From positions 6,734 through 70,733 of the forward strand of contig LBRD01000003.1 in the NCBI GenBank assembly GCA_000991245.1: a DNA stretch of 64,000 bases. The letters run 5' to 3'. Each line of letters begins with the position of its first letter. Within the stretch, counting starts at the first letter, position 1. This document shows, one piece after another, positions 13,165 to 57,538 of this stretch. This DNA is from Parcubacteria group bacterium GW2011_GWC1_36_108 (lineage in GTDB: Bacteria; Patescibacteriota; Minisyncoccia; Moranbacterales; GWC2-37-73). The translations under genes and the position numbers were made by a program. The notes beneath the pieces were generated by a model. That model searched no databases and was not told where the DNA came from. It was given only the letters and a program-made list of their open reading frames with translations.

Positions 13165-15471
13165 TCAGTTATTTTTGTATAGATCGAAAAATTCTTGATC
13201 AAGCTTGATCACTTTTATGAAATTTCTAGGACGCCCGTTTATTTCCAGTTTGTAGACAACTTTTTCATCATCTCTGTCATAAAGAGTGTCAAAGCGAATC
13301 AAATCTTTTTTGATGGTCAAAGGAGTGACCATTTTTTTTGTTCGGGCAGATCTGCCAGCCGAAACGATTGCATAATCAAGATTGGCAGCTCGCAGTTTTG
13401 GATAGGCAAAACCAGAATAACATTTCGCCTTGAGAAAAGGGCAGACACCTTTTTTATCGGTCCATACTTGCAACTCCTCAGGATTTGGCAGGGAATTGAT
13501 GAATTGCGCAGCCTCGTAACTTCCAGTGCCCATATCCTTAAGGTCCGTGTAATATTTTTCAGGCAAAAGAGGGGAATCATAACTTATGAAAAATGGTTTG
13601 GCAAAATAAAGAGTGCCGATACCTAGGATTAGAAATAGTAATACGGTAATGTTTTTCTTGTCGAGTTTGTTTTTGATGAATTTTTCATAAAAAATACCCA
13701 TACCGATGCCGCCCAATATCATAGCCAATGGAAAGACCATAATTTGATAGCGATTCATTGCCGCAACTTTGTTAACGGTCGTTGCTAAATAATAGAGAAA
13801 GATAAAAAGAGAAAGGGAGAAAATGGTTGAGCTTGTTCTGGTGGGAATATTTTTTCCAAATATACTTATAATGGCGGCGAAAACCAGAAAGATTAGTGAT
13901 AATGGAGCTATGCTGAAAACTAATGGAAAAAAGTTTGCAAAGAACAGTCCATCATATCCACCCGTGGTGTAGGCTGATTTTGGGGAAGATATGATTGCTT
14001 CAAAATCATACCAAGACATATTCGTGTAAGTGTTGGCAAAAGTAAACGCGATAAAAAAAAGAAAAAGAGCTGAAATTGAAATGAGAAAAACTTTGCTGTA
14101 TCTGGAAAGAAAATTTAAAACATATGAAGATATTTTTCCACCTATTGCTGCAATGTCAATCAAGAGGAGTGCAAAAAAACCAGCGAAAATCGGCCAAGTG
14201 CTTTCAAAAGCCTGACTGAGCAATGTTCCCTCGAGAAGTCTTGAGGGCTTTATCCAAACTGCAGGAAACAAGACATAAAAAACCACCAATGAAACAAAAA
14301 AGAGAATGAGATAATCAGTGAGAGATTCTTTAATATATCTTTTGAGTGTCATTTTCGCATAGTTTGCTTTGTGGAAAACATATTCGACGAAAATCAGACC
14401 CAAGAAGAAAACGGAAAGAATATTGGCGACATATTTTGTCAGAAGTGCTAGTCCGAGCAATATTCCTGATAAATACAGATAAAAAGGAGTTCTTCTTTTT
14501 TGATAAACCAAAAAGGATAGCAGTGAAAGAGGTGCAAAAACCCAAAGGATAGCATCAGGATTTATGATGCTTGCCATCCCAATCAAAAGCGGAGAAAGAC
14601 CAATTGAGATATAGGAAAAAAGAGCTGTTTTCTTTCCTAAAAGTCTTTCCATAAGAAAATAGAAAAATGGAAGCATCAAGATGGTAAACAGTAAAATTGG
14701 AAATCTGAAAGTAAAATTCAATTTTTCAAAATCAAAACGATTAAGTTCGGTTCCTATCAATCCTCTGCCATAAGCCGATTTGTATGTTTTTGGACTTTCA
14801 AACAGGAGTCCTGCTCCCGAGATTATTGCTACCGTTATGCCCGGCTTGTCACTGATTTTTGTGTTTCGCCAATCTCTTTCCTTGAGATTTTTCCAATAAC
14901 TTGGAATTCGATCAAATGTCCAAAGTGGTTCATCAACTGCTCCAAATTTTGCCAGATTATATGTTCCAAGCCCCAAATTTGTCAGCATCACAGCAAAAAT
15001 AACAAACCAAGCAACTTTTCCTTGCAGTTTTGCCCATATTTTGAAAGATGAAAATGTGTTTTTGACCTCGTTCTCTTTCCATATGAAATTTCTTCTACCA
15101 ATCAGAAAGAATCCTGCTAGGATTACGTATAGTCCTGATGCGATATAAAAAAGATAATGAAAATCGGTTGATTGACTGAGACCATAAAGCATCACGAATT
15201 CTGCTGGCAAAAAAGTCAGCAACAACTTTTCAATGGTCAGTTTCAAGCTTGTTTCTTTGGTATAAAAAAAAGCGATGATTCCAAACGTCAAAACAATGAG
15301 TATGAAATATGCCAAATAGTGATTTGTCGTGCGGCTGGAAATGTTGAACATTGAAAGATTCTTTACCTCGCGGGAAATGAAAAACAATGTGTTTATAGTG
15401 AAGGCAAAAGACAGAAAAGTCAGCAGCGCATCAAGTGTATTTTTAGGAATATTATTCAAGAAATTTTTCAT
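13165..15471 (-). CDS. GT-C family membrane glycosyltransferase (PMT_2/ArnT-like)
   Basis: Many TM helices. The first ATG (15471) is preferred over the track's TTG at 15498. Confidence 0.6.
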   Translation of the reverse strand: MKNFLNNIPKNTLDALLTFLSFAFTINTLFFISREVKNLSMFNISSRTTNHYLAYFILIVLTFGIIAFFYTKETSLKLTIEKLLLTFLPAEFVMLYGLSQSTDFHYLFYIASGLYVILAGFFLIGRRNFIWKENEVKNTFSSFKIWAKLQGKVAWFVIFAVMLTNLGLGTYNLAKFGAVDEPLWTFDRIPSYWKNLKERDWRNTKISDKPGITVAIISGAGLLFESPKTYKSAYGRGLIGTELNRFDFEKLNFTFRFPILLFTILMLPFFYFLMERLLGKKTALFSYISIGLSPLLIGMASIINPDAILWVFAPLSLLSFLVYQKRRTPFYLYLSGILLGLALLTKYVANILSVFFLGLIFVEYVFHKANYAKMTLKRYIKESLTDYLILFFVSLVVFYVLFPAVWIKPSRLLEGTLLSQAFESTWPIFAGFFALLLIDIAAIGGKISSYVLNFLSRYSKVFLISISALFLFFIAFTFANTYTNMSWYDFEAIISSPKSAYTTGGYDGLFFANFFPLVFSIAPLSLIFLVFAAIISIFGKNIPTRTSSTIFSLSLFIFLYYLATTVNKVAAMNRYQIMVFPLAMILGGIGMGIFYEKFIKNKLDKKNITVLLFLILGIGTLYFAKPFFISYDSPLLPEKYYTDLKDMGTGSYEAAQFINSLPNPEELQVWTDKKGVCPFLKAKCYSGFAYPKLRAANLDYAIVSAGRSARTKKMVTPLTIKKDLIRFDTLYDRDDEKVVYKLEINGRPRNFIKVIKLDQEFFDLYKNN

Positions 15472-15550
15472 ATAAAAATGGTTGATTTCACGGTGCAATT
15501 GTAATATAATACCGGTGTGATCAATTTAATGTTTATACTTATCATTATAC

Positions 15551-17344
15551 ATGAATAATCCAATAGATAAAGAGTCTTTGAAGTCTTTGGTTGGGAGCAG
15601 ATTTTTTGTTGGAGCAATCTTGATTGCGATTTTGGCAGTTGGTGTTTTTTTGCGCGCATATAACTTTTCTGACTGGCAACATTTTGAACTTGATCAATCT
15701 CGCGATGCAAAGGTTATAGATTTGGCGGTGGAAAACGGAGTGGGGGATCTTCCTCTTTTGGGACCAAAGGCAGCGGGGTCATTTTTGCGTCTCGGTCCAA
15801 TATTTTATTATTTCGGTTATGTGAGCGCAAAAGTATTTGGTAACACGCCTTCTGGGATTGCTGTCATTTCACTCATTTTTTCTTGTTTAACGCTGCCCCT
15901 GTTTTATTTGTTTGTCAGAAGATTTTTTTCAAAAAAAATAGGACTTATGCTTCTAGGAGTTTTTTCCGTTTCAATTTTTCTTGTTCTGTACTCACGTTTT
16001 TCATGGAATCCTAATAATTTGCCATTTTTCATTTTGGGTGCACTTTATGGTCTCCTTCGTGCAACGGATGAGAATGAAAAAAGAAAAGGCTGGTGGTTGA
16101 TTGTAGGAGTTGTTTCTTTGACTATTGCAACTCAACTTCACTTTGTGGCTTTTTTGGGCTTGCCGATGATTGCCGTCGCGTATCTTCTAATAAAAAGACC
16201 TTTAATAAACTGGAAATATTGGCTGGCTTCTATCGCATGCATTGTTTTTTTGTATATTCCTTCGATAATAAATGATTTCAAGACAGGTGGTTCAAATATT
16301 ATTGAATTTGAAAAAGTGTTCGCAAAAACATCCACCAAGGGCGAGCATACTCTTGTTGAAAAAATAATAAGAAACATCGACAAGAGTTCGGCTGGATATG
16401 TCTTGCTGATAAGTGGAAATTCACAGGCCGAATTGCCAAAGGTGAAGATTCCAAGAATACGACCAATTTTTACATGTGATGAGGATTGCAAAAAAGGTGT
16501 CCCAATGGGAATTTTTTCACTATTCTTTGCTATTATTGGAAGTGCACTTTTGGGTTGGAATATTTTCAAAACAAAAGAAACTTCGCGCAGAGATTTTTTG
16601 ATCATCGTGGCTATTTGGGTATTGGTTACGCTGGCACTTTTTACTCCGATTTCATATGATATGGCTCCAAGATTCTTTCTGCTGGTTGCTCCGATCCCAT
16701 TTGTTTATTTGGGGCTTATTTTGGATTTTTTTGAAAAAAGAAAAGCCAGTGTTCTTTCTTGGGTTTTCGTTTTGATTCTCTTGGCTTCAAATGGCTGGCT
16801 TGTTAAAGAAAGATTTAGCGAACTTGCAAATGCTCCCGTTAAAGAATTTGAGATATCTTCGGACAAAATTCTCAAAGAAAACGAACGAGTAACCCTTGAG
16901 CAACAGCTTCTGATTACCAAATATATTGAAAGTATTTATAATCAAAACAACTTTCCAGTTTATGTTAATAGTGAGGCATTTTATCGCAGATCATTTTTGT
17001 ATCATCTGGAACAACGTTTGATAGTTCGCGATGATTTTCGCAATACCAGAAGTGTTTATTCTGAGGGAAATTATTTTTTGGTGTATCCATCTTCTTCAAC
17101 TGTGGAAAAAATTTATGAAAATTATCAGGATAAATATGATATTGCTGAAATCAAGGAATTTGGCACGCTTAGAGTTGTGCGCTTGCTTCCAAAATTGCAA
17201 ATGATAACAGCGGTGCGTCAGGAATTTGCTCCAGCAAGAAAACCAATCAGCGCTCCTGGCGTGCCAGTGCGTTGTCGTTGGAATGAAATTTTTTCCCAAT
17301 GTAATAGTGACGGAACGGAGGCGGAGGATGAAAGTAGTTTATAA
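15551..17344 (+). CDS. GT-C family membrane glycosyltransferase (ArnT-like)
   Basis: FLRAYNFSDWQHFELDQSRD...LLGPKA...GPIFYY, paralogous to the N-terminus of 10433..13147. Confidence 0.7.
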   Translation: MNNPIDKESLKSLVGSRFFVGAILIAILAVGVFLRAYNFSDWQHFELDQSRDAKVIDLAVENGVGDLPLLGPKAAGSFLRLGPIFYYFGYVSAKVFGNTPSGIAVISLIFSCLTLPLFYLFVRRFFSKKIGLMLLGVFSVSIFLVLYSRFSWNPNNLPFFILGALYGLLRATDENEKRKGWWLIVGVVSLTIATQLHFVAFLGLPMIAVAYLLIKRPLINWKYWLASIACIVFLYIPSIINDFKTGGSNIIEFEKVFAKTSTKGEHTLVEKIIRNIDKSSAGYVLLISGNSQAELPKVKIPRIRPIFTCDEDCKKGVPMGIFSLFFAIIGSALLGWNIFKTKETSRRDFLIIVAIWVLVTLALFTPISYDMAPRFFLLVAPIPFVYLGLILDFFEKRKASVLSWVFVLILLASNGWLVKERFSELANAPVKEFEISSDKILKENERVTLEQQLLITKYIESIYNQNNFPVYVNSEAFYRRSFLYHLEQRLIVRDDFRNTRSVYSEGNYFLVYPSSSTVEKIYENYQDKYDIAEIKEFGTLRVVRLLPKLQMITAVRQEFAPARKPISAPGVPVRCRWNEIFSQCNSDGTEAEDESSL

Positions 17345-41444: not shown

Positions 41445-42263
41445 TTAAAATGGGCTTTTGATGTTTCTAAGCATTGGATTAGTTACTTTCGTGTATATCT
41501 GTGTTGTTCTTATATTAGCATGTCCAAGCAATTCTTGTACATATCGCACATCAACCCCATTTTCAAGCAGATGAGTGGCAAAAGAATGTCTAAGTGAGTG
41601 AAAAGTGGCTTCTTTTTGAACCTCAGCTTTTTGCAGAGCATTTTCAAAAACTTTTTGTGCGCTACGCTCATCTAATTTTCCTCCGCGATTACTGGCAAAA
41701 ACATAATCATTTAAATCTCTAAGCGCAATCATATTAAGCAATTGTGGTTTCAATTTTTCTGAAATTACACTTATTCTATCCTTGTTTCCTTTAGCTCCTT
41801 TTATATGAATTGTTAATTCGTCTAAATTGATGTCTTTAATCTTTAAATTTATTGCTTCACTGACGCGAAAACCTGCGCCATAGGAAAGGGAAATGAGCAG
41901 CTTATGTTTCGGATTGCTTATGGAATCAATCATTCTTCCAATCTCATCCCTAGAAAGTACTACGGGCAATTTGCTGGCAGTTTTGGCAAATTTGATATCA
42001 ATTTCAATATTATTTTTAAAAACTTCTCTATAAAAGTATTTAATAGCTTGAAGATGCACATTCATCGTCTGTGAGGATTGTCCACGAGCTTGTTTTTCTA
42101 ATAAATATTTCTTAATTACTTCAATTTCCGGTTCGCGCTTAATAATTTTAATGTATTTGAAATATTCATTCAGACAAGACAAATAACTCTCAATTGTCCT
42201 TGGACTGTAATTTCGAAGTTTCAGTTCGTTTTTGATTTTTTCCAGCAACTCTTGGAGATTCAT
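41445..42263 (-). CDS. tyrosine site-specific recombinase (Xer/IntI-like, 272 aa)
   Basis: YSPRTIESY N-terminal SAM-like domain; KLPVVLSRDE; catalytic R (GFRVSE), K (KGNKDR), HSLRHSFATHL and LGHANIRTTQIYTKV (Tyr). There is no long insertion between the K and HxxR regions. Confidence 0.85.
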   Translation of the reverse strand: MNLQELLEKIKNELKLRNYSPRTIESYLSCLNEYFKYIKIIKREPEIEVIKKYLLEKQARGQSSQTMNVHLQAIKYFYREVFKNNIEIDIKFAKTASKLPVVLSRDEIGRMIDSISNPKHKLLISLSYGAGFRVSEAINLKIKDINLDELTIHIKGAKGNKDRISVISEKLKPQLLNMIALRDLNDYVFASNRGGKLDERSAQKVFENALQKAEVQKEATFHSLRHSFATHLLENGVDVRYVQELLGHANIRTTQIYTKVTNPMLRNIKSPF

Positions 42264-42321
42264 AAAAAATATGCTATATTTTATTCATAAATCAGTGATG
42301 GTTGTATTATACTAAAAGTTC

Positions 42322-42384
42322 GCATAACCTGCAACTTTCAACATACTATCAAACACTAAGTTCGTATATAAAGGAGTTATGTGC
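42322..42384 (+). other. attI-like region: GCATAAC (42322-42328) ... GTTATGTGC (42376-42384)
   Basis: Inverted AAC/GTT boxes 113 bp or less from the recombinase start. 42376 is where similarity to the right end of cassette 1 begins. Confidence 0.4.
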
Positions 42385-42489
42385 AATAGCCAGAAATACC
42401 CCATTATCTTTTAGAATTTTTTTTGGCGAAATGCAGGGTCGAATAACTCAAGGTAAAATTAATATTAATTAAATTAAACAACAAACATT

Positions 42490-43110
42490 ATGAAAGAAAT
42501 GTATCAACCATCGCAAGCTGAAATAAAAAAAGCAGAAGATGTCATGACTGAAGAACAAAAACTTGAGAGCATGACGAGAGAAAATGCTGTTCACGCAGGG
42601 GAAGCATCTTTCAGTGATTATGATGAAACAAAAAAAATTAACCCAGAAAAAACCCATAAAATTGAGATAGAACTGCAAGCCACAATTTATAAGGAATTCA
42701 ATGATCGAGTTAAAGAATTAGTTAAATCATATACAGAAAGCCTATCTGCCCTAAAAAGAGAAGCTAACTATGAAGACGACGAGCAGCTTGATGAGATAGA
42801 TAAAAAAATAAATGAATTAACAAAAAAATTATTTGAAGACTTTGGAGAACAGTATATGCGCTTAAGCAAGGTTGTAATAGACACCACAATAACAATATCA
42901 GATTTTGTAATTCATAAAAAAGACATGTTATTACAGCAAGAAGAAGATCAACAAAAAAGACAGGAGTTAGAAGCCAGCATACTTAAAAGCGAAAATGCAA
43001 AAATACAAAGAGCGGAAGCTGTCATAGCAAATCTTGAAAAATATATAAACGATGTTAAAAACAATTTTGAAAAAGGTGCTGAAGAATTAATGAAAGAAAT
43101 AAAGAAATAA
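42490..43110 (+). CDS. cassette 1 ORF: acidic coiled-coil protein, unknown function
   Basis: 206 aa, E/K-rich. Bracketed by inverted repeats 42376-42430 and 43117-43175. Confidence 0.6.
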   Translation: MKEMYQPSQAEIKKAEDVMTEEQKLESMTRENAVHAGEASFSDYDETKKINPEKTHKIEIELQATIYKEFNDRVKELVKSYTESLSALKREANYEDDEQLDEIDKKINELTKKLFEDFGEQYMRLSKVVIDTTITISDFVIHKKDMLLQQEEDQQKRQELEASILKSENAKIQRAEAVIANLEKYINDVKNNFEKGAEELMKEIKK

Positions 43111-43166
43111 GAAAAATTCGCCAAAAAAAATTAAACACAAATAAGGAATGGGTATTTCTAGCTACA

Positions 43167-43364
43167 GCACATAACAGCCCATATCTGGCTACAGGAAATT
43201 GACGCTAGTAAAAACAATATTGAGTGTCAATTTCCCTCCGCCCAAATTTTCATCCCTTGGTTTGATGAAGGTTTAGGCGGAGTGCATTAAAAAAAATATC
43301 AGCCTGTAATTAAAGTTTATCCTGCTAAACGGGATGAAAACTTCAGATATGGGCGACGTTGTGC
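43167..43364 (+). other. attC-like folded site 1
   Basis: GCACATAAC, then CCCATATCTG pairing with CAGATATGGG; hairpin GGAAATTGAC/GTCAATTTCC; CCCAAATT; GTTGTGC. Confidence 0.55.
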
Positions 43365-43527
43365 GAAATAAATTTTTTATCTATACTAATATTAGCGTTT
43401 AGTGATGCTAGTAAGGACAGAAAATTTGATTTTTTAATTATTTTAAGAGGGGTAATATGTGTTTTTCTGCTCTTTGGGGAGCAGAAAAAATTAATTCATT
43501 TGTAATTTATTTTTAAGCAATAAAACT

Positions 43528-44430
43528 ATGAGCATGGAACAACCAAAATTTAATCCACACAATCCTGAATATAAAAAAGTTGAGGATTTACCAAAAGAAG
43601 AACAAGTAAATTATTCTGACGTTGAAGGTGGTTTTGTTCAAAAAGAAGCAGCTGAGTTTTATAAAATAGCGCAGGACATTGAAAGAATTACAGAGCGCGA
43701 AAGTGGCTCAATGAGTGCTGACAAATTCATGATGCTTCTCGCGCAAGATGAGGACACGAAAAGAGAATGGGATGCGCTTACTGGAAAACAAAAGCTCAAT
43801 GTTCTCATGGGAAATCCTAAAAAAGAGGACATGGATTTATCGACTTGGAACACGAATAGGTCTGCGATAGAGAAAACTCTTGAAGAACATCCTGAACTTA
43901 GAGATAACAAGAAGCTTATGCTTAAATTGATTATTTCAGGTACCAGTCAGGCACCAGGGCTTGCTTCTGAAAAAGTGCGTAATGATAAGGGTTACGCTTT
44001 GGAGGCGGTAAAACGAAACGGAATGGCTCTCGGGTATCTTCCAGAGGAGATGCAAGACGATGAAGATGTTGTTATGGCAGCAGTTACTACGCGTGGATTA
44101 GCTCTTAGAGAGGCTTCTCCACGATTGCAGAACAATAGAGAAATTGTTGCTGCAGCAATCACCTCAGAGGATGGAGACTTTGGAGACATAATATATGCCT
44201 CCTCAGATGAGGTAATTGAAAGTTTATTGGATGAAAATAACCCAGCCAATAAGGATATTCTTTTAAAAGCGATGAATAACAAGCATGTCAATGATAATTA
44301 TAAAAGAATTGCCAGCTATAATCCAAATCATCCAGACTACCAGGGTGGGCAGTACGATGAAGTTTTCAAGAGATATGAGCATCTGCACATGCGTGAGAAA
44401 ATAGAGAAAATATTGGGAGAGAATTTATAA
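43528..44430 (+). CDS. cassette 2 ORF: DUF4116-type repeat protein
   Basis: Repeats of the form AVKRNGMALGYLPEEMQDDEDVVMAAVTTRGLALREASPRLQNNREIVAAAI. No SD. Confidence 0.6.
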   Translation: MSMEQPKFNPHNPEYKKVEDLPKEEQVNYSDVEGGFVQKEAAEFYKIAQDIERITERESGSMSADKFMMLLAQDEDTKREWDALTGKQKLNVLMGNPKKEDMDLSTWNTNRSAIEKTLEEHPELRDNKKLMLKLIISGTSQAPGLASEKVRNDKGYALEAVKRNGMALGYLPEEMQDDEDVVMAAVTTRGLALREASPRLQNNREIVAAAITSEDGDFGDIIYASSDEVIESLLDENNPANKDILLKAMNNKHVNDNYKRIASYNPNHPDYQGGQYDEVFKRYEHLHMREKIEKILGENL

Positions 44431-44455
44431 ATATCCAAAAAAATACCAATAAGGA

Positions 44456-44504
44456 GTCTTGAAAAAAGGAATTCACCCCTTACCCCTCTTCCTTTTTTCA
44501 AGAC
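44456..44504 (+). other. 15-bp perfect hairpin with conserved C-rich loop ATTCACCCCTTACCCCTCT
   Basis: GTCTTGAAAAAAGGA / TCCTTTTTTCAAGAC. The loop is complementary to AAGAGGGGTAA at 43445-43455 and 44782-44792. Confidence 0.7.
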
Positions 44505-44573
44505 AAAAATCAAATTTTCTTAGACGCAACACAACGTTTAGTTTAATAAAAAACGAGATAAAAAATTTACATC

Positions 44574-44700
44574 GCACAACAACTCATATCTGGCTCAAGA
44601 AATTGACACTTTAATGTTTCAGATGAAAGTCAATTTCTTTCGACCCAAATTTTTGTGCAATTACATTGCGCAAAAACTTCAGATATGAGTAACGTTAGCT
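44574..44700 (+). other. attC-like folded site 2
   Basis: GCACAAC, then ACTCATATCTG pairing with CAGATATGAGT; GAAATTGAC/GTCAATTTC; CCCAAATT; GTTAGCT. Confidence 0.55.
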
Positions 44701-44853
44701 GAAATATTTTTTTGTCTTTAGTAGTGATTTTTAGATTTGTGATTTAAATAGGGACAGAAAATTTGATTTTTAATTTATTTAAAGAGGGGTAATGGGATAT
44801 TTTTTTGCTCCTGGAATCGCAAAAAAAAGATTTATTTTATTTTTAAAAACAGT

Positions 44854-46431
44854 ATGGAAAAATATTCATTAGAAAATGCCCAGAGCGAAGCTACTGTTAT
44901 TAGAAATGATGCACAAGAGGCAAAACAAAAAAGAGTGCTAGAGGGCGAAAAAAGCGGTGAGCCAAATAGAGATGATTATGACAAAGCCGACAAAGCGATT
45001 GATAGCATTGGCATAAGTAATAGAAAAGAATTTGAGCAAAAACAAGCTGAGATACAAAATAAATATTCAACCGTATTGGAGGGGTCAAAAAATAGCGGTA
45101 ATCAAGAATCTGTAAAATTGCTTCAAGATAACATGAGTCAAGAACTATCTTTTATTGATAGCCAATCAAAGAAATTTAATAGTTTGGAATTTAAAAAGGG
45201 AGAGAAGGCGACGCGTGAATATATTAAAAAAAATAATCTTGATAAATTAGTAGAAGAATTCGGAATTGAGCCAATGAAAGAGGGTTGTCGTCTTTCATTG
45301 GTCATTCCAGCATGCAACGAGGGGCGTGATATTCAAAAAACATTACAATCCTTAGCAGAGCAGAAAGATGAAAATGGTGAAGGTATTAATCCTGATGAAT
45401 TTGAGGTTTTGATTACAGTCAATCAAAAAGAGCAATCAAGCGAGGAAATAAAAAAATCAAATCAACAAACACTTGAAGCAATAGAAGAATTCAAAAGGAA
45501 TAATCCATCTTTAAATATCCATGCTATTTTAAAAGAATTTACGGGCGAGCAAGGTGGTGTTGGTTGGGCAAGAAAATTAGGAAGTGATTTGGTACTTGCA
45601 AGAAGTTTTAGCAGAAATCAAGAATCTGAACGAGAACCGATGTATATTGCAGGAACTGACGCTGATACAATTGTTGGTGAGCAATATGTATCAGAAATTA
45701 TCAAGGCAGCAAATAAGTATGGCGATGCCGCCTATGGCGGTGGTGTTATTTTTGATGAGAATTGGGAAAAAGCATTGGGAAAAAATGCGTCCGACAAGCT
45801 CAGGGTATTCATGGAAGATATGCGTGGATTTCTATTAAAGGCATTAAATGGCGGTTTGCAAGGTGCAAACTTTGCCATACGCGAAGATATCTATGCTCGC
45901 ATGGAAGGAAGCTCAACAAAAGTACATAGCGAAGATGCGGAAAATGATGAACGATTACGAAGTTTGAAAAAAAATGTAACATTTTTAAATTCTGACCATA
46001 TCACTAGCTCTCGTAGGATGATTGGAGAATTCGAAAACTATATTGCTGGAATGCGAGGGCAAAAAATAGACTGGGAAACACGAAACAAGACTTATGGAAA
46101 GTCTGTCCCTACGGGAGAAAAAATTGACTTTACTGAATCCGAGCTTGATGAGGTAATTGCTTACCACAAATTACATAGATCAGATCTAATTATAGACAGT
46201 ATAACTTCGGAAAACGTAAATAATCCAGAGATGGTGCAATTGATTGGAGAAAAATATCATTCTGATTTTAAAGATTTAAAAACTGAAGAATTTAAGACAC
46301 TATTGAATGATAAAAATTTTAGAAAAAAATTACAAATTGAGATAGCATACAATATGTCTAAATTATTTGCATCGAAAATTTCATATACAGAAAAAGATAA
46401 ATTCATCATCGGAATTCCAGAAAAACAATAA
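44854..46431 (+). CDS. cassette 3 ORF: protein with central GT-A (GT2-like) glycosyltransferase fold
   Basis: LSLVIPACNEGRDIQKTLQSL and GTDADTIV (DxD-like). Coiled-coil N-terminus. No SD. Confidence 0.55.
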   Translation: MEKYSLENAQSEATVIRNDAQEAKQKRVLEGEKSGEPNRDDYDKADKAIDSIGISNRKEFEQKQAEIQNKYSTVLEGSKNSGNQESVKLLQDNMSQELSFIDSQSKKFNSLEFKKGEKATREYIKKNNLDKLVEEFGIEPMKEGCRLSLVIPACNEGRDIQKTLQSLAEQKDENGEGINPDEFEVLITVNQKEQSSEEIKKSNQQTLEAIEEFKRNNPSLNIHAILKEFTGEQGGVGWARKLGSDLVLARSFSRNQESEREPMYIAGTDADTIVGEQYVSEIIKAANKYGDAAYGGGVIFDENWEKALGKNASDKLRVFMEDMRGFLLKALNGGLQGANFAIREDIYARMEGSSTKVHSEDAENDERLRSLKKNVTFLNSDHITSSRRMIGEFENYIAGMRGQKIDWETRNKTYGKSVPTGEKIDFTESELDEVIAYHKLHRSDLIIDSITSENVNNPEMVQLIGEKYHSDFKDLKTEEFKTLLNDKNFRKKLQIEIAYNMSKLFASKISYTEKDKFIIGIPEKQ

Positions 46432-46434
46432 GGA

Positions 46435-46484
46435 GTTTTGTTTCAAAAAAATTCACCCCTACCCCTCTTTTTTTGAAACAAAAC
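46435..46484 (+). other. 17-bp perfect hairpin with conserved loop TTCACCCCTACCCCTC
   Basis: GTTTTGTTTCAAAAAAA / TTTTTTTGAAACAAAAC. The stem differs from 44456-44504 but the loop is conserved. Confidence 0.7.
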
Positions 46485-46553
46485 GAAAAATCAAATTTTC
46501 TTAGTAATAAAACAAAGTTTGTATTAATAAAATAGAAGACAAAAAAATACATC

Positions 46554-46743
46554 AGCTAACACGGCATATCTGGTTCAGAAATTTTTCACTTTTATACTTT
46601 TTAACGCCAAGGTTTGAAAAATTTCCTCTCCCAAATTGCGCTGTGATATGGCAAAGTTTAGTGATATAATTAAGGCAGGCAGAAAGTTGAAGTTTTAGCC
46701 AATGAATATGGGCGCAACTTCAGATGATGCCGATACGTTGTCG
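46554..46743 (+). other. attC-like folded site 3
   Basis: AGCTAAC, then GGCATATCTG pairing with CAGATGATGCC (one bulge); GAAATTTTTCA/TGAAAAATTTC; CCCAAATT; GTTGTCG. Confidence 0.5.
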
Positions 46744-46803
46744 GAAATATCAAAAAACAAATTCATTAATATTTTTTTCAAGCCCTTTTGAAATTCAGGT
46801 AAA

Positions 46804-46830
46804 GAAAAAACCGCACAGTATTCTGTGCGG
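46804..46830 (-). terminator. rho-independent terminator for the minus-strand small ORF
   Basis: Minus strand reads CCGCACAG-aata-CTGTGCGG followed by TTTTTT. Confidence 0.7.
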
Positions 46831-46848
46831 TCGTAATTACATTTGTCA

Positions 46849-47019
46849 TTATATCGCCCTCGACATTTCCTGAATTGAAGCCTCGCTTAGTTTGTTGTGT
46901 TCTTTTTCGTCACAAGAAGCTATCAAGTACGTGCACAAGATTATAGTACCACCAAATCCATTGGGAAAATGTTGGGCATGTCTACAGTCATCATCTTCGT
47001 ATGGACAACGCTTTTCCAT
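46849..47019 (-). CDS. cassette 4 ORF: 56-aa Cys/His-rich protein (below track threshold)
   Basis: AAGGAGGTGATTAAT-ATG strong SD. MEKRCPYEDDDCRHAQHFPNGFGGTIILCTYLIASCDEKEHNKLSEASIQEMSRAI. Has its own terminator. Confidence 0.5.
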   Translation of the reverse strand: MEKRCPYEDDDCRHAQHFPNGFGGTIILCTYLIASCDEKEHNKLSEASIQEMSRAI

Positions 47020-47092
47020 ATTAATCACCTCCTTGTTTAATGTGCTAGTATACTATTATTAGATAAATTATCAATATTGTCAAGCGGGGAAA

Positions 47093-47124
47093 AACTTCTC
47101 ATACTTAGATATGTTGTGCGAAAT
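47093..47124 (+). other. degenerate terminal site (AACTTC...TAGATAT-GTTGTGCGAAAT)
   Basis: Shares GTTGTGCGAAAT with 43358-43369 and retains a decayed AACTTCAGATATG box. Confidence 0.4.
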
Positions 47125-47212
47125 TTTTTAAAAATGCTGTGGATAAGTTACGGTGTACGGTTTTTAATTATAATGATACAATATCACTATAATTAAATAA
47201 AGAATAAAACTT

Positions 47213-48040
47213 ATGCAAAATCCAGAAAGTCACATTGCCATTTTCAAGGGAAAAACTATCAGAAAAATCATTTTTCAAAAGGAATGGTGGTTTTCTGTTG
47301 TGGATATTATACAGGTCATAACGGACAGTCCAACTCCAAGGCAATATTGGGGCAAGGTTAAGCAGCGTGAATTTACTGATCTTCAGTTGTCCCCAATTTG
47401 GGTACAACTGAAATTGGAAGCTTCTGATGGCAAAAAATATGAAACAGATTGTGCAAATACAGAAGGAATGCTTCGTATTATTCAATCAATACCATCTCCT
47501 AGGGTTGAACCATTGAAACGTTGGCTAGCAAAGGTTGGTTATGAGCGCATTCAAGAGGTAGAAAACCCAGAACTTGCCAGCAAACGGACAAGATTATTAT
47601 ATAAACTAAAAGGTTATCCTGAAGATTGGATTGAAATGCGTATGCGTGGTATTGCAATTCGCGAAGAATTGACAGATGAATGGCAAAAAAGAGGTGCAAA
47701 ATATAAACAAGATTACGAAATTTTAACTGCAGAAATATCTGAGGCCACATTTGGACTAAAACCAAATGAATATAAAAAAGTAAAAAGTCTGAAGCGTGAA
47801 AATCTTCGTGACCACATGGATGACTTCGAATTAATTTTGACTATGCTGGGCGAGCGAACCACAAAAGAAATTCATAAAACCAAAGATTCCAAAGGTATAC
47901 AAAGATTGAAAGATGATGCTAGACTTGGCGGAGAAGTAGCAGGAACAGCTAGAAAACAAATTGAAAGAAGAATTGGCAGACCAGTGATTTCAGAAAAGAA
48001 TTTTCTGAAATCTAACAATAGGAAGAAAATTAAAAAATAG
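47213..48040 (+). CDS. Bro-N domain protein (DinD/antirepressor-like)
   Basis: IAIFKGKTIRKIIFQKEWWFSVVDIIQVITDS N-terminal Bro-N pattern. DinD-like C-terminal half. Confidence 0.65.
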   Translation: MQNPESHIAIFKGKTIRKIIFQKEWWFSVVDIIQVITDSPTPRQYWGKVKQREFTDLQLSPIWVQLKLEASDGKKYETDCANTEGMLRIIQSIPSPRVEPLKRWLAKVGYERIQEVENPELASKRTRLLYKLKGYPEDWIEMRMRGIAIREELTDEWQKRGAKYKQDYEILTAEISEATFGLKPNEYKKVKSLKRENLRDHMDDFELILTMLGERTTKEIHKTKDSKGIQRLKDDARLGGEVAGTARKQIERRIGRPVISEKNFLKSNNRKKIKK

Positions 48041-48077
48041 AATATTTTCAAAAATAATAATAAGCAATCTTAATCTT

Positions 48078-48539
48078 ATGAAATATAAACACACTCAAAT
48101 TGGTTATCTGATGTTAGTTGTTACGTTGGCTGTGGCGGTGCTTTTCGCACGGATTTATATTATGGCTGCTGCCGAGCCACCTTCGGCTGATTCGGGCACA
48201 AATCTTCTTGTTACTGCTGTAATGTTATTAATCCTGTCTGTTCTTGCTTCCTTCGGGTCACTTCAAGTAATTATTGATGAAGAAAATTTAAGAATAAAAT
48301 TTGGCTACGGTATTTTTAGAAAAAAGTTTTCGCTTGATGATATAATTTCTGCTAAAACAGTGAAGAATCATTGGTATTATGGATGGGGAATAAAGATGTG
48401 GCTCTGGCCAAAAATGTGGATTTACAACGTTTCCGGTTTTGATGCGGTTGAAATAAAAATGAAGAATGGTAAAATGTATAGAATAGGCACGGATGAACCT
48501 GGAAAATTAGAACAAGCAATTTTGCAATCAATTAAATAA
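48078..48539 (+). CDS. membrane protein, two TM segments plus a small soluble domain
   Basis: 153 aa. Hydrophobic N-terminus. Confidence 0.5.
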   Translation: MKYKHTQIGYLMLVVTLAVAVLFARIYIMAAAEPPSADSGTNLLVTAVMLLILSVLASFGSLQVIIDEENLRIKFGYGIFRKKFSLDDIISAKTVKNHWYYGWGIKMWLWPKMWIYNVSGFDAVEIKMKNGKMYRIGTDEPGKLEQAILQSIK

Positions 48540-48574
48540 TTAAGACTAGGTAAAAAAATAAAAAAACAAAAACT

Positions 48575-48781
48575 ATGTTTAAACATCACAAAAAGAAAAA
48601 CCCATTCTTGTATCATTTAATATCAGGAATTGGGCTTATTATTTTTTGGCGAGGAATTTGGGGGATTATGGATCTGTATCTCTTTCCCGGAAATCCAACG
48701 CTGAGTCATTCTTTTGCAATTACACTTGGGCTTGTTATTTTATATTTCAATGATTTTTCAATATCAGAGTTGATCAAATAA
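48575..48781 (+). CDS. small membrane protein
   Basis: 68 aa, two hydrophobic segments. Confidence 0.45.
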   Translation: MFKHHKKKNPFLYHLISGIGLIIFWRGIWGIMDLYLFPGNPTLSHSFAITLGLVILYFNDFSISELIK

Positions 48782-49064
48782 GTGGCTCGGTTTTGACTTT
48801 CGGCGCATCTGATTTCTTGCCAATAATTTTGAAGAAGTAATTCCACTTTTGTCCTGTTTTGCAAAGCTCTTTGGTGTCGTTCATTGCGCGCTCAACGATT
48901 TGTTTGTTGTATTGCTTGCAGACACGAAAGATGGAACCGCGTTTGTCATTGGGAACATCAAAATCTTTGATAATTTTAAGTGCCAGCTCTTGCCACTGAT
49001 AAGCAGGAGCTTTTTGAACAACTCTTTTTTTCATTAATTCTCCAAAGGTTTTTAAATCTTTCAT
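48774..49064 (-). CDS. hypothetical protein
   Basis: 96 aa, basic, no recognisable motif. Confidence 0.45.
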   Translation of the reverse strand: MKDLKTFGELMKKRVVQKAPAYQWQELALKIIKDFDVPNDKRGSIFRVCKQYNKQIVERAMNDTKELCKTGQKWNYFFKIIGKKSDAPKVKTEPLI

Positions 49065-49101
49065 ATGTTTTTGCGGGGATTATCTTAATAATTTTTTATT
49101 G

Positions 49102-49238
49102 TTAGGACTTACGCACTTTCTCAACGATTTCTTTTTTGGCACGCTTTTGGATAAATACTCACTATCCAAAAACTCAAAGAGTCGCTGTCGCCAACAATTG
49201 GCCAAAAAAGAAATGTTTCGAAATGCGTAACTTCTGAA
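49102..49238 (+). mobile_element. TIR element D, full copy
   Basis: TTAGGACTTACGCACTT...AAATGCGTAACTTCTGAA. Track ORF 49080..49274 lies inside it. Confidence 0.8.
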
Positions 49239-49326
49239 TTTGTTTATTTTACCAGTAGGGGATGGTAAAAGCAAAGATGTTATTCAAAAAGGTTGATTTA
49301 ACGCTAAAAGCTGTTATAATAGGGCA

Positions 49327-57489: not shown

Positions 57490-57538
57490 TACAGTAGAAA
57501 AATATCATCATAGTACCTTAGTAAGAAGGAGGAGATGT

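Follow-up and report, generated by a model that had tools for sequence, protein, structure and literature searches.

A gene for a tyrosine recombinase and four open reading frames (ORFs) next to it lie at positions 41445 to 47124 of the window, that is, the whole 64,000-nt stretch of DNA analysed here, from a member of Candidatus Moranbacteria of the candidate phyla radiation (CPR). The stretch 42376-47112 is very likely a four-cassette array, with three intact cassettes and one decayed cassette, of a sedentary chromosomal integron-like element. The window is AT-rich (approximately 36% GC); no tRNA gene was found in it by a tRNA scan, and no Rfam family was found in the whole window by a scan at the gathering cutoff. 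The four ORFs, which the initial annotation regarded as the mixed cargo of a cassette array, are all present exactly as it described them. ORF2 and ORF1 are 100% identical to the hypothetical proteins US57_C0003G0015 and G0016 of Candidatus Moranbacteria bacterium GW2011_GWC2_37_73, a groundwater CPR organism. The features of the locus are as follows.

41445..42263, minus strand: gene of a tyrosine recombinase, IntI/XerA-like, 272 amino acids (aa), transcribed away from the array and without the IntI-specific insert.
42264..42378, plus strand: attI-like site; the crossover GTT, at 42376-42378, directly follows ..TTCGTATATAAAGGA.
42376..43357, plus strand: cassette 1, 982 bp, with leader, ORF1, trailer and attC1; its start, GTTATGTGC, complements its own end, GCACATAAC.
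42490-43110, plus strand: ORF1, 206 aa, an acidic, hydrophilic orphan.
43167..43364, plus strand: attC1, 198 nt, with R'' GCACATAAC, L'' CCCATATCTGG, L' CAGATATGGG and R' GTTGTGC.
43358..44693, plus strand: cassette 2, 1336 bp, with a conserved leader, ORF2, trailer and attC2.
43528-44430, plus strand: ORF2, 300 aa; DUF4116 helical repeats follow a 45-aa module at the N-terminus.
44573..44701, plus strand: attC2, 129 nt, with R'' CGCACAAC, L'' CTCATATCTGG, L' CAGATATGAG and R' GTTAGCTG.
44694..46736, plus strand: cassette 3, 2043 bp, with a conserved leader, ORF3, trailer and attC3; its start, GTTAGCTG, complements its own end, CAGCTAAC.
44854-46431, plus strand: ORF3, 525 aa; a GT2 core, predicted to have the GT-A fold (about 147-350), between helical N- and C-terminal regions.
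46553..46744, plus strand: attC3, 192 nt, with R'' CAGCTAAC, L'' GGCATATCTGG, L' CAGAT(G)ATGCC and R' GTTGTCGG.
46737..47112, plus strand: cassette 4, 376 bp, decayed; the expression unit of ORF4 is reversed, and there is no intact R''/L''.
46849-47019, minus strand: ORF4, 56 aa from the ATG at 47019, with four Cys and three His and its own promoter, Shine-Dalgarno (SD) sequence and terminator.
47095..47124, plus strand: terminal half-site (L'-R' only), CTTCTCATACTTAGATAT GTTGTGCGAAAT, the end of the array.

GTT crossover points at 42376, 43358, 44694, 46737 and 47113 flank the ORFs, with one ORF in each interval. The attC sites were analysed with a regular expression and a covariation count. 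The 64-kb window has four copies of their 3' motif, CTTC..ACGTTnnnnGAAAT, at 43358, 44694, 46737 and 47113, in all cases on the plus strand, and no further attC motif was found beyond 47113, including the region of the Bro-N gene described below. The three intergenic regions are homologous units of approximately 420 nt, each with an AAC...GTT palindrome, and the R boxes have the consensus RYRYAAC/GTTRYRY. In the intact cassettes, the bases after GTT complement the bases before AAC at the 3' end of the same cassette (GTTATGTGC/GCACATAAC, GTTGTGCG/CGCACAAC and GTTAGCTG/CAGCTAAC). The same complementarity is observed in other arrays (GTTATCGG/CCGATAAC, GTTGTACG/CGTACAAC, GTTGTGTG/CACACAAC, GTTAGGCG/CGCCTAAC and GTTGGGCG/CGCCCAAC), with eight covarying sequence types across the window and the loci L001, L002 and L008. 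Such cassette-specific complementary ends are the classical signature of cassettes. Longer inverted repeats of the same kind are present in cassette 1 (26 nt, 42376-42401 with 43150-43175) and in cassette 3 (25 nt, 44694-44718 with 46536-46560).

The inner stem formed by L'' and L' shows compensatory changes between sites: CCCATATCTG/CAGATATGGG, CTTGTATCAG/CTGACACAAG and CGTGTATGAG/CTCATACACG. Across 13 sites, 93.4% of the cells of this stem pair, as against 31-40% when the partners are slid. Double changes occur in 8 of 11 pairs, and the covariation score of 0.528 (0.154 in shuffles) was reached by none of 500 shuffles. The mean duplex energy of the L boxes is -15.3 kcal/mol for own partners and -8.2 kcal/mol for non-own partners. 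A bulged base is present in several of the attC sites. As single-stranded DNA, attC1 folds into a multibranch hairpin of -41.1 kcal/mol (z = -7.3).

The ORF2 cassette recurs in a metagenome contig (L008, 3128-4455), where the protein is 89% identical and the neighbours are different. The homology between the window and L008 starts at ACGTTGTGCGAAAT (GTTGTGCG), spans the leader, ORF2, the trailer and attC2, and ends at GAGTAACGTTA (..AACGTT); the flanks are unrelated. In other words, this cassette has moved between arrays as a unit. The cassette-specific ends, the covarying inner stem and the exact boundaries in L008 together indicate that these are recombination sites rather than ordinary repeats. 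A homologue of ORF3 (87% aa identity) is found in a 442-kb contig (L001), directly after an IS256 transposase, where it heads an array of small cassettes encoding 125, 54, 169, 77, 102 and 81 aa, with NUDIX, MazG, DUF1706 and SnoaL proteins and with the same kind of sites between them. In a second sample (L002), the first two cassettes are as in L001 and the following ones are different. Homologues of both ORF2 and ORF3 are thus located in other arrays with AAC...GTT sites, and the cassette-array reading of the initial annotation holds: the ORFs lie between such sites, the palindromes covary and a cassette recurs elsewhere. Although the ORF3 homologues are 87% identical, their attC cores (46561-46736 in the window, 11741-11896 in L001) share only 51% identity, with different R'' boxes (CAGCTAAC and CGCACAAC). 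This means that the association of an ORF with its attC is not fixed.

It should be mentioned that the IS256-family transposase gene of L001 (8587-9840) lies directly upstream of the ORF3 homologue, at the place where the conserved leader is absent, and that an ISL3 transposase gene (15305-16273) lies inside another cassette of the same array. A further shared cassette was observed in L037 and L041: a 91% identical protein of 192 aa, NUDIX-like as read from its sequence, is encoded by the second cassette in both genomes.

The array is variable at a conserved chromosomal locus. Moranbacteria GW2011_GWE1_49_15 (L032) shares the fmt-def-recombinase ... ligT frame with the window, and it carries cassettes that read as NUDIX-like and SnoaL-like; ORF1-4 are all absent. 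This bears on the possibility that the ORFs function together as one operon, such as a module for glycosylation that includes scaffold proteins, in which the palindromes would be regulatory repeats similar to repetitive extragenic palindromic sequences or terminators. The common orientation of ORF1-3, the homology of the flanks of ORF2 and ORF3 and the identity of the array in all contigs of the population would fit such an operon. However, the homologues of ORF2 and ORF3 are found apart from each other and with other neighbours, and homology breaks exactly at the GTT sites. The R boxes are specific to the cassette, the syntenic L032 locus lacks the four ORFs, and no T-run was found downstream of the hairpins of the array. 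The conserved syntenic operon is therefore largely refuted and seems hardly credible.

The recombinase shows a Pfam Phage_integrase domain (1.9e-41) and an N-terminal SAM-like domain (SAM_4). Its homologues, 55-82% identical, were found in 49 CPR loci, whose labels include Moranbacteria, Wolfebacteria, Uhrbacteria and Shapirobacteria. In the 5 kb upstream of these genes, on the opposite strand, the 3' attC motif is enriched approximately 20-fold (0.475 versus 0.023 per kb), and at least one motif is present in 25 of the 31 recombinase loci with at least 1 kb of upstream sequence. The region between the recombinase start and the first GTT (approximately 115 nt) is conserved in 11 genomes, with ..ATATTCGCAAA..GCAATATT..ACTTCGCATATAAAnGAGTT, and diverges right after GAGTT; this site is conserved up to the crossover and variable after it, as is the attI of integrons. 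The GTT is likewise approximately 114 nt from the recombinase start in L033, L036, L041, L043, L044 and L051. In 16 of the 49 loci (L010-L058), the start of the recombinase gene is within 300 nt of a contig end on the array side, which is expected if the repeated attC sites break short-read assemblies; array sizes in metagenome-assembled genomes (MAGs) seem to be underestimated for this reason. Several of the loci (L010, L011, L021, L027, L034, L037, L041, L054 and L058) are in MAGs labelled Bdellovibrionales, Cyanobacteriota or Gammaproteobacteria, with recombinases 55-82% identical to the Moranbacteria protein. Mis-binning of CPR contigs is the probable explanation.

The best PDB match of the recombinase is the integron integrase VchIntIA (2A3V), at an E-value of 9.6e-46 and in two pieces: 12 aa (residues 184-195) replace approximately 55 aa of VchIntIA (186-240). 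The archaeal XerA structures 4A8E and 5HXY match over the full length almost as well as IntI. These matches raise the question of whether the enzyme might be the single chromosome-dimer resolvase of the cell, of the XerA type, with a dif-type site in place of attI and with the cassettes as passengers similar to the integrative mobile elements exploiting Xer (IMEX); the cassette nature of the cargo would be unchanged. The full-length similarity to the two XerA structures, as strong as that to IntI, speaks for this view, and XerA_Arch is the only NCBIfam model above its cutoff. So does the high conservation of the recombinase (55-82%) across many CPR lineages, with the fmt-def-recombinase synteny common to L032 and L034. 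In streptococci, difSL adjoins xerS, and the CTX phage integrates a folded single-stranded DNA site via XerCD. On the other hand, the sites of the array are imperfect palindromes of 129-198 nt with R and L boxes, the former specific to each cassette, and not 28-bp dif sites; by inspection, no dif-like 11-6-11 palindrome was identified in attI. A divergent gene, an attI and a co-oriented array are the arrangement of an integron, and the best single PDB match is an integron integrase. A primary role of the enzyme as resolvase, with hitch-hiking cassettes, appears unlikely on balance, and it is the rival to be taken most seriously.

Several observations weigh against the integron-like array proposed here. 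The first group concerns the recombinase. XerA_Arch scores 224.5 bits (cutoff 220), and the integron integrase model TIGR02249 reaches 212.5 bits (cutoff 265), in two stretches. The IntI-specific domain around patch III is missing. This domain is held to be necessary for integron recombination (PMC9668308, citing Messier and Roy 2001; PMC4792948), and the putative role of the recombinase in cassette recombination is unproven. The second group concerns the array. For cassette 4, which lies between the GTT at 46737 and the half-site at 47113, the complement of its own start was not found (7/12), and there is no intact attC. The fold of the whole attC3 element is no better than that of shuffles (z = -0.9), though its L and R boxes pair. 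At least 24 contigs with identical ORF2 all show the same array, with no evidence of ongoing shuffling in this population; this identity reflects one population and says nothing either way. Finally, ORF1 and ORF4 have no homologues, and they are recognised as genes by ORF length and expression signals only.

According to the proposed mechanism, a divergent recombinase beside attI would insert and excise circular cassettes, each made of one ORF and its own 3' attC; the crossover would take place at the GTT, both in attI and in folded attC-like palindromes. The substrate would be single-stranded. The junction of the ORF2 cassette circle would read ...GATATGAGTAACG followed by TTGTGCGAAATAAATTTTTTATC, and the empty site ...GGGCGACG followed by TTAGCTGAAATATT. 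ORF1-3 would be read from an upstream promoter. Since cassettes would be acquired singly, the cargo would be a historical mixture.

This arrangement resembles that of sedentary chromosomal integrons such as the Vibrio cholerae superintegron (IntIA, attIA and attC of the VCR type). Both have a divergent tyrosine recombinase, an adjacent attI and a co-oriented array with a GTT crossover; in both, a cassette consists of one mostly promoterless ORF with, on its 3' side, an imperfect palindrome that carries L boxes and AAC...GTT R boxes. Within a lineage, the attC sites form a homogeneous family, and the array is variable at a conserved chromosomal locus. The cargo is also alike: unrelated, mostly small, mostly without annotated function and with occasional reversed, self-expressed cassettes. 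The major differences are the lack of the approximately 55-aa IntI domain, the CPR host and the short array of four cassettes. In addition, the R box is RYRYAAC/GTTRYRY, compared with RYYYAAC/GTTRRRY in sedentary integrons. The sites (198, 129 and 192 nt from R'' to R') do not as a set keep to the classical range of 57-141 nt, and complementarity extends 60-105 nt past the R box. The element is best described as a variant of the integron: its architecture, at the level of sequence, is integron-like, and its recombinase lacks the domain that defines an integron integrase.

Comparison with other systems leads to a similar picture. The archaeal integrons (Ghaly et al. 2022, PMC9668308) also have integron architecture in MAGs outside the classical bacterial phyla and retain the folding of attC, but archaeal IntIs keep the IntI-specific additional domain (PMC9668308), unlike the Moranbacteria recombinase. 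Clusters of attC sites without an integron integrase (CALINs in the sense of IntegronFinder) are resembled by the array of L001, which has no recombinase within 10 kb upstream. The present locus would probably be classed as a CALIN, its recombinase being expected to fail the IntI-specific profile. Unlike in CALINs, a recombinase is consistently adjacent here and attI is conserved, which makes the element look complete and not degraded. The Xer-dependent modules, namely pdif of Acinetobacter plasmids and IMEX such as the CTX phage, share a Xer-type recombinase without the IntI insert and small gene modules, and CTX uses a folded single-stranded site. However, pdif sites measure 28 bp and occur in alternating orientation, and the integration site of IMEX is dif, whereas the palindromes here are of 129-198 nt, in one orientation (plus) and with cassette-specific R boxes.

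The non-coding parts of the cassettes are conserved in their own right. In each of the three intact cassettes, the complementarity between the 5' leader and the 3' trailer of that cassette continues for 60-105 nt past the crossover. The energies of the own duplexes are -52 (cassette 1), -80 (cassette 2) and -74 kcal/mol (cassette 3), compared with -15 to -35 kcal/mol for shuffles (-15 kcal/mol for those of cassette 1) and -15 to -58 kcal/mol for non-cognate pairs. Cassettes 2 and 3 have in common a leader module (GACAGAAAATTTGATTTTT ... AAAGAGGGGTAAT ... and a hairpin TTTTTCTGC-N-GCAGAAAAA) and a complementary trailer module; in cassette 2 these are as follows.

43416..43489, plus strand: leader module, with GACAGAAAATTTGATTTTT, AAGAGGGGTAAT and a hairpin TTTTTCTGCTC/GAGCAGAAAAA; its twin in cassette 3 starts at 44753.
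44456..44520, plus strand: trailer module, a hairpin with the loop TTCACCCCTTACCCCTC and then AAAAATCAAATTTTCT; it complements the leader module, and its twin in cassette 3 is at approximately 46435-46501.

The trailer module is based on the inverted repeats I1, I8, I15, I24 and I25, and it recurs in other arrays. In other CPR genomes and metagenomes, the same leader precedes unrelated ORFs, in 24 distinct sequences. Its position is constant, approximately 60 nt after GTT and 100 nt before ATG, and the apex of its hairpin covaries. The non-coding parts of the ORF2 cassette are 90-94% identical between the two arrays, compared with 76% at roughly fourfold third positions; in other words, the non-coding parts are constrained. 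This constraint on leader and trailer may serve recombination, or RNA processing and expression. The ORFs are mutually dissimilar, as stated in the initial annotation; the leaders and trailers of the ORF2 and ORF3 cassettes are homologous, and as DNA the cassettes are not altogether unrelated. The leader together with its complementary trailer occupies 43358-43527, 44694-44853, 44431-44580 and 46432-46560 in the window, and the pair recurs in L008, L012, L013, L015, L033, L034, L043, L044, L050 and L088-L191.

Two possible functions of the leader were considered and rejected. It does not seem to be a sigma-70 promoter: no acceptable spacing of -35 and -10 elements was found, and promoter-like matches in the region number 19, compared with 20.8 in shuffles. 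Nor does it mark one type of cargo, as judged from N-terminal sequences only: leader-bearing cassettes look NUDIX-, HisD-, HAD-, HD-, beta-lactamase- and GNAT-like, together with membrane proteins.

The lack of an SD sequence for ORF2 and ORF3, and the AAGGAGG of nearby small genes, to which the initial annotation drew attention, are both real. The contrast drawn between them is misleading. Among 47 ORFs, comprising ORF4 and the larger ORFs (120 aa or more), 45 have no SD, and these include def, fmt, ctp, gltX and ligT. This means that SD-less initiation is the norm in this genome, core genes included, with ORF4 as the exception, and the absence of SD is not a property of cassettes. The AAGGAGG sequences are at 57526, 59028, 59204 and 62447, in addition to 47028 (ORF4); the genes led by them encode a 68-aa Cys-rich protein, a 51-aa protein, an apparently membrane-bound 105-aa protein, a 194-aa protein and ORF4. 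These genes may be foreign or specially translated.

As for the cargo itself, the ORFs do not resemble one another, as had been noted before. Pairwise BLASTP among ORF1-3 gave no significant match; the sole hint was a 19-residue N-terminal match between ORF1 and ORF2 (E = 0.015), and the corresponding profile comparison was not significant (E = 0.012, probability 3.7%). A common N-terminal signal in ORF1-3 was rejected for the same reason: the profile of the ORF2 module matched ORF1 only at this level and ORF3 not at all. In an all-versus-all BLASTP of 46 cassette ORFs from the compared arrays, only orthologous cassettes matched. Purifying selection acts on both ORF2 (dN/dS 0.15, against the L008 homologue) and ORF3 (dN/dS 0.10).

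ORF2 is a DUF4116-repeat protein, as first described: PF13475 matches in two stretches at an E-value of 2e-18 (66.1 bits, cutoff 24.9). In its AlphaFold2 model, an all-helical repeat, the mean predicted local distance difference test (pLDDT) score is 73.7, with values above 90 in the repeat region. A Foldseek search with this model gave only non-significant resemblances to alpha-solenoids (E of 0.37 or above), and the repeat region matches phrog_31839. The N-terminal 45-aa module, FNPxNPEYKKVEDLPxEEQxxFxDVEGGFVxKEA, is unannotated (window 43528-43689, residues 1-54 of ORF2). At least 176 representative protein clusters contain it, nearly always at residues 1-50, in proteins of 46-587 aa with diverse C-termini. 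Among 10 module proteins checked, three have DUF4116 and six have no Pfam domain. The module is not specific to cassettes, since three module proteins (P0016, P0021 and P0022) sit in loci without attC motifs. The N-terminus of ORF1 resembles the module weakly and not significantly.

ORF3 was described at the outset as a protein with the GT-A fold. Glycos_transf_2 (PF00535) matches it at residues 148-347, with an E-value of 1.8e-9 (38.2 bits, cutoff 23.3). The LSLVIPACNEG motif and D269-A-D271 are conserved in the homologues, the DAD being invariant in five sequences; the alignment of these five also keeps RLSLVIPACNEG, GWARKLGSD, YIAGTDADT, GANFAIR and TSSRRM. The AlphaFold2 model is weak (mean pLDDT 57.9), and residues 289-405 are unreliable. 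With its confident nucleotide-binding half, the top PDB matches in Foldseek were all GT-A/GT2, at E of about 1e-3 over approximately 145 columns: K4CP, a Leptospira glycosyltransferase, PcManGT, AvpGT, GtrB, SpsA and TarP. Only four homologues were found by a word-indexed search of 5.8 billion protein clusters, and a profile search gave no sequence relative in the PDB. ORF3 has in common with glycosyltransferase family 2 (GT2) enzymes of the SpsA, GtrB, K4CP and TarP type the Pfam GT2 domain, an N-terminal xxVIPAxNE, a DxD (DAD) and matches to the GT-A fold. Unlike these enzymes, it has long helical N- and C-terminal extensions in addition to the lack of a PDB sequence relative, and no membrane segment was seen. 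From these features, ORF3 is predicted to be a rare, divergent and soluble GT2 glycosyltransferase.

ORF1 is acidic, with a pI of 4.91 and Asp or Glu at 47 of 206 residues. Its description as a coiled-coil protein is unproven: the heptad heuristic gave 0.68, compared with 0.53±0.09 for shuffles, 9% of which reached this value (p about 0.09), and weak matches to the coiled-coil tail of ZorA were found (E = 4e-4). Among the 5.8 billion protein clusters, the only sequence found was ORF1 itself, and no family match was found in Pfam, NCBIfam or PHROG.

ORF4 is Cys/His-rich and on the opposite strand, and the strong SD and terminator attributed to it were both found. The SD, AAGGAGGTG, is at 47028-47034, 8 nt before ATG; a near-consensus promoter, TTGACA-17-AATAAT, is at 47083-47055 and a terminator with a 10-bp stem at 46832-46809, both on the minus strand. 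The GC content of 0.41 is above that of the window. The SD, the promoter and the higher GC content suggest that ORF4 is probably of foreign origin. No relatives were found in JGI metagenome contigs and no family match in Pfam, NCBIfam, PHROG or PADLOC; in public contigs, ORF4 is not called as a gene. A toxin-antitoxin cassette was considered here and rejected: there is a single ORF, and no toxin or antitoxin family of the four collections matches it.

ORF1-3 are hydrophilic (grand average of hydropathy -0.83 to -0.94), and no signal peptide or transmembrane segment was seen in them by inspection of the sequences. The suggestion that the GT-A and DUF4116 proteins modify the surface or interact with a host thus gains no direct support, and such a role of the cargo is a guess. 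The cargo is ordinary for a cassette array. We infer its biochemical roles, and no role can be assigned beyond "GT2 enzyme" and "helical repeat protein".

Directly after the array is a Bro-N gene (47213-48040), which matches PDC-S13, a candidate for phage defence in PADLOC (1.4e-108), as well as phrog_15286 (6e-80). This gene and the following ORFs of 153 and 96 aa are absent from L032, and the 68-aa ORF is only weakly matched in L017. The stretch 47113-49300, which has no attC motif, looks like a second variable segment of another kind. Together with the phrog_31839 match of ORF2 and the foreign-looking expression signals of ORF4, the phage-associated Bro-N gene might point to a decayed prophage or genomic island beside a phage-type integrase, with the repeats being incidental. 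Such an origin is very improbable: no phage structural or replication genes are present at 42.3-47.1 kb, and no tRNA or att duplication was found. An attC architecture with covariation and a linkage of recombinase and array in dozens of genomes are not features of islands.

No description of integron arrays in CPR, Patescibacteria or Parcubacteria was found in open-access papers and preprints, and an earlier description is possible. The paper on archaeal integrons (PMC9668308) and the IntegronFinder 2 paper do not mention CPR lineages. In a 2026 permafrost survey, 97.4% of the contigs with "integron-type" recombinases were not called complete integrons (PMC13323075). The integron-like element of Moranbacteria might represent a CPR-wide, undescribed lineage of integrons, with a short IntI/XerA-like integrase without the IntI domain, long self-complementary cassette ends, by which trailer, attC and leader would form one hairpin of 300-420 nt, and a cargo that belongs in part to the large family of the 45-aa module. 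It might then be a proto-integron between Xer and IntI, or an independent solution for the use of folded DNA sites. This proposal is tentative, with the balance tilted slightly against it.

Integron recombination is held to depend on the IntI-specific domain, which reads the extrahelical bases of folded attC. Here, a widespread natural recombinase without this domain is nevertheless tightly linked, in many CPR lineages, to a conserved attI and to arrays of covarying attC sites. With such a system, the derivation of integrons from Xer-type enzymes could become accessible to experiment. Elements of this kind may be overlooked systematically by tools that require the IntI domain. For the ultra-small episymbionts with reduced genomes in which it is found, the element would provide a dedicated device for gene capture.

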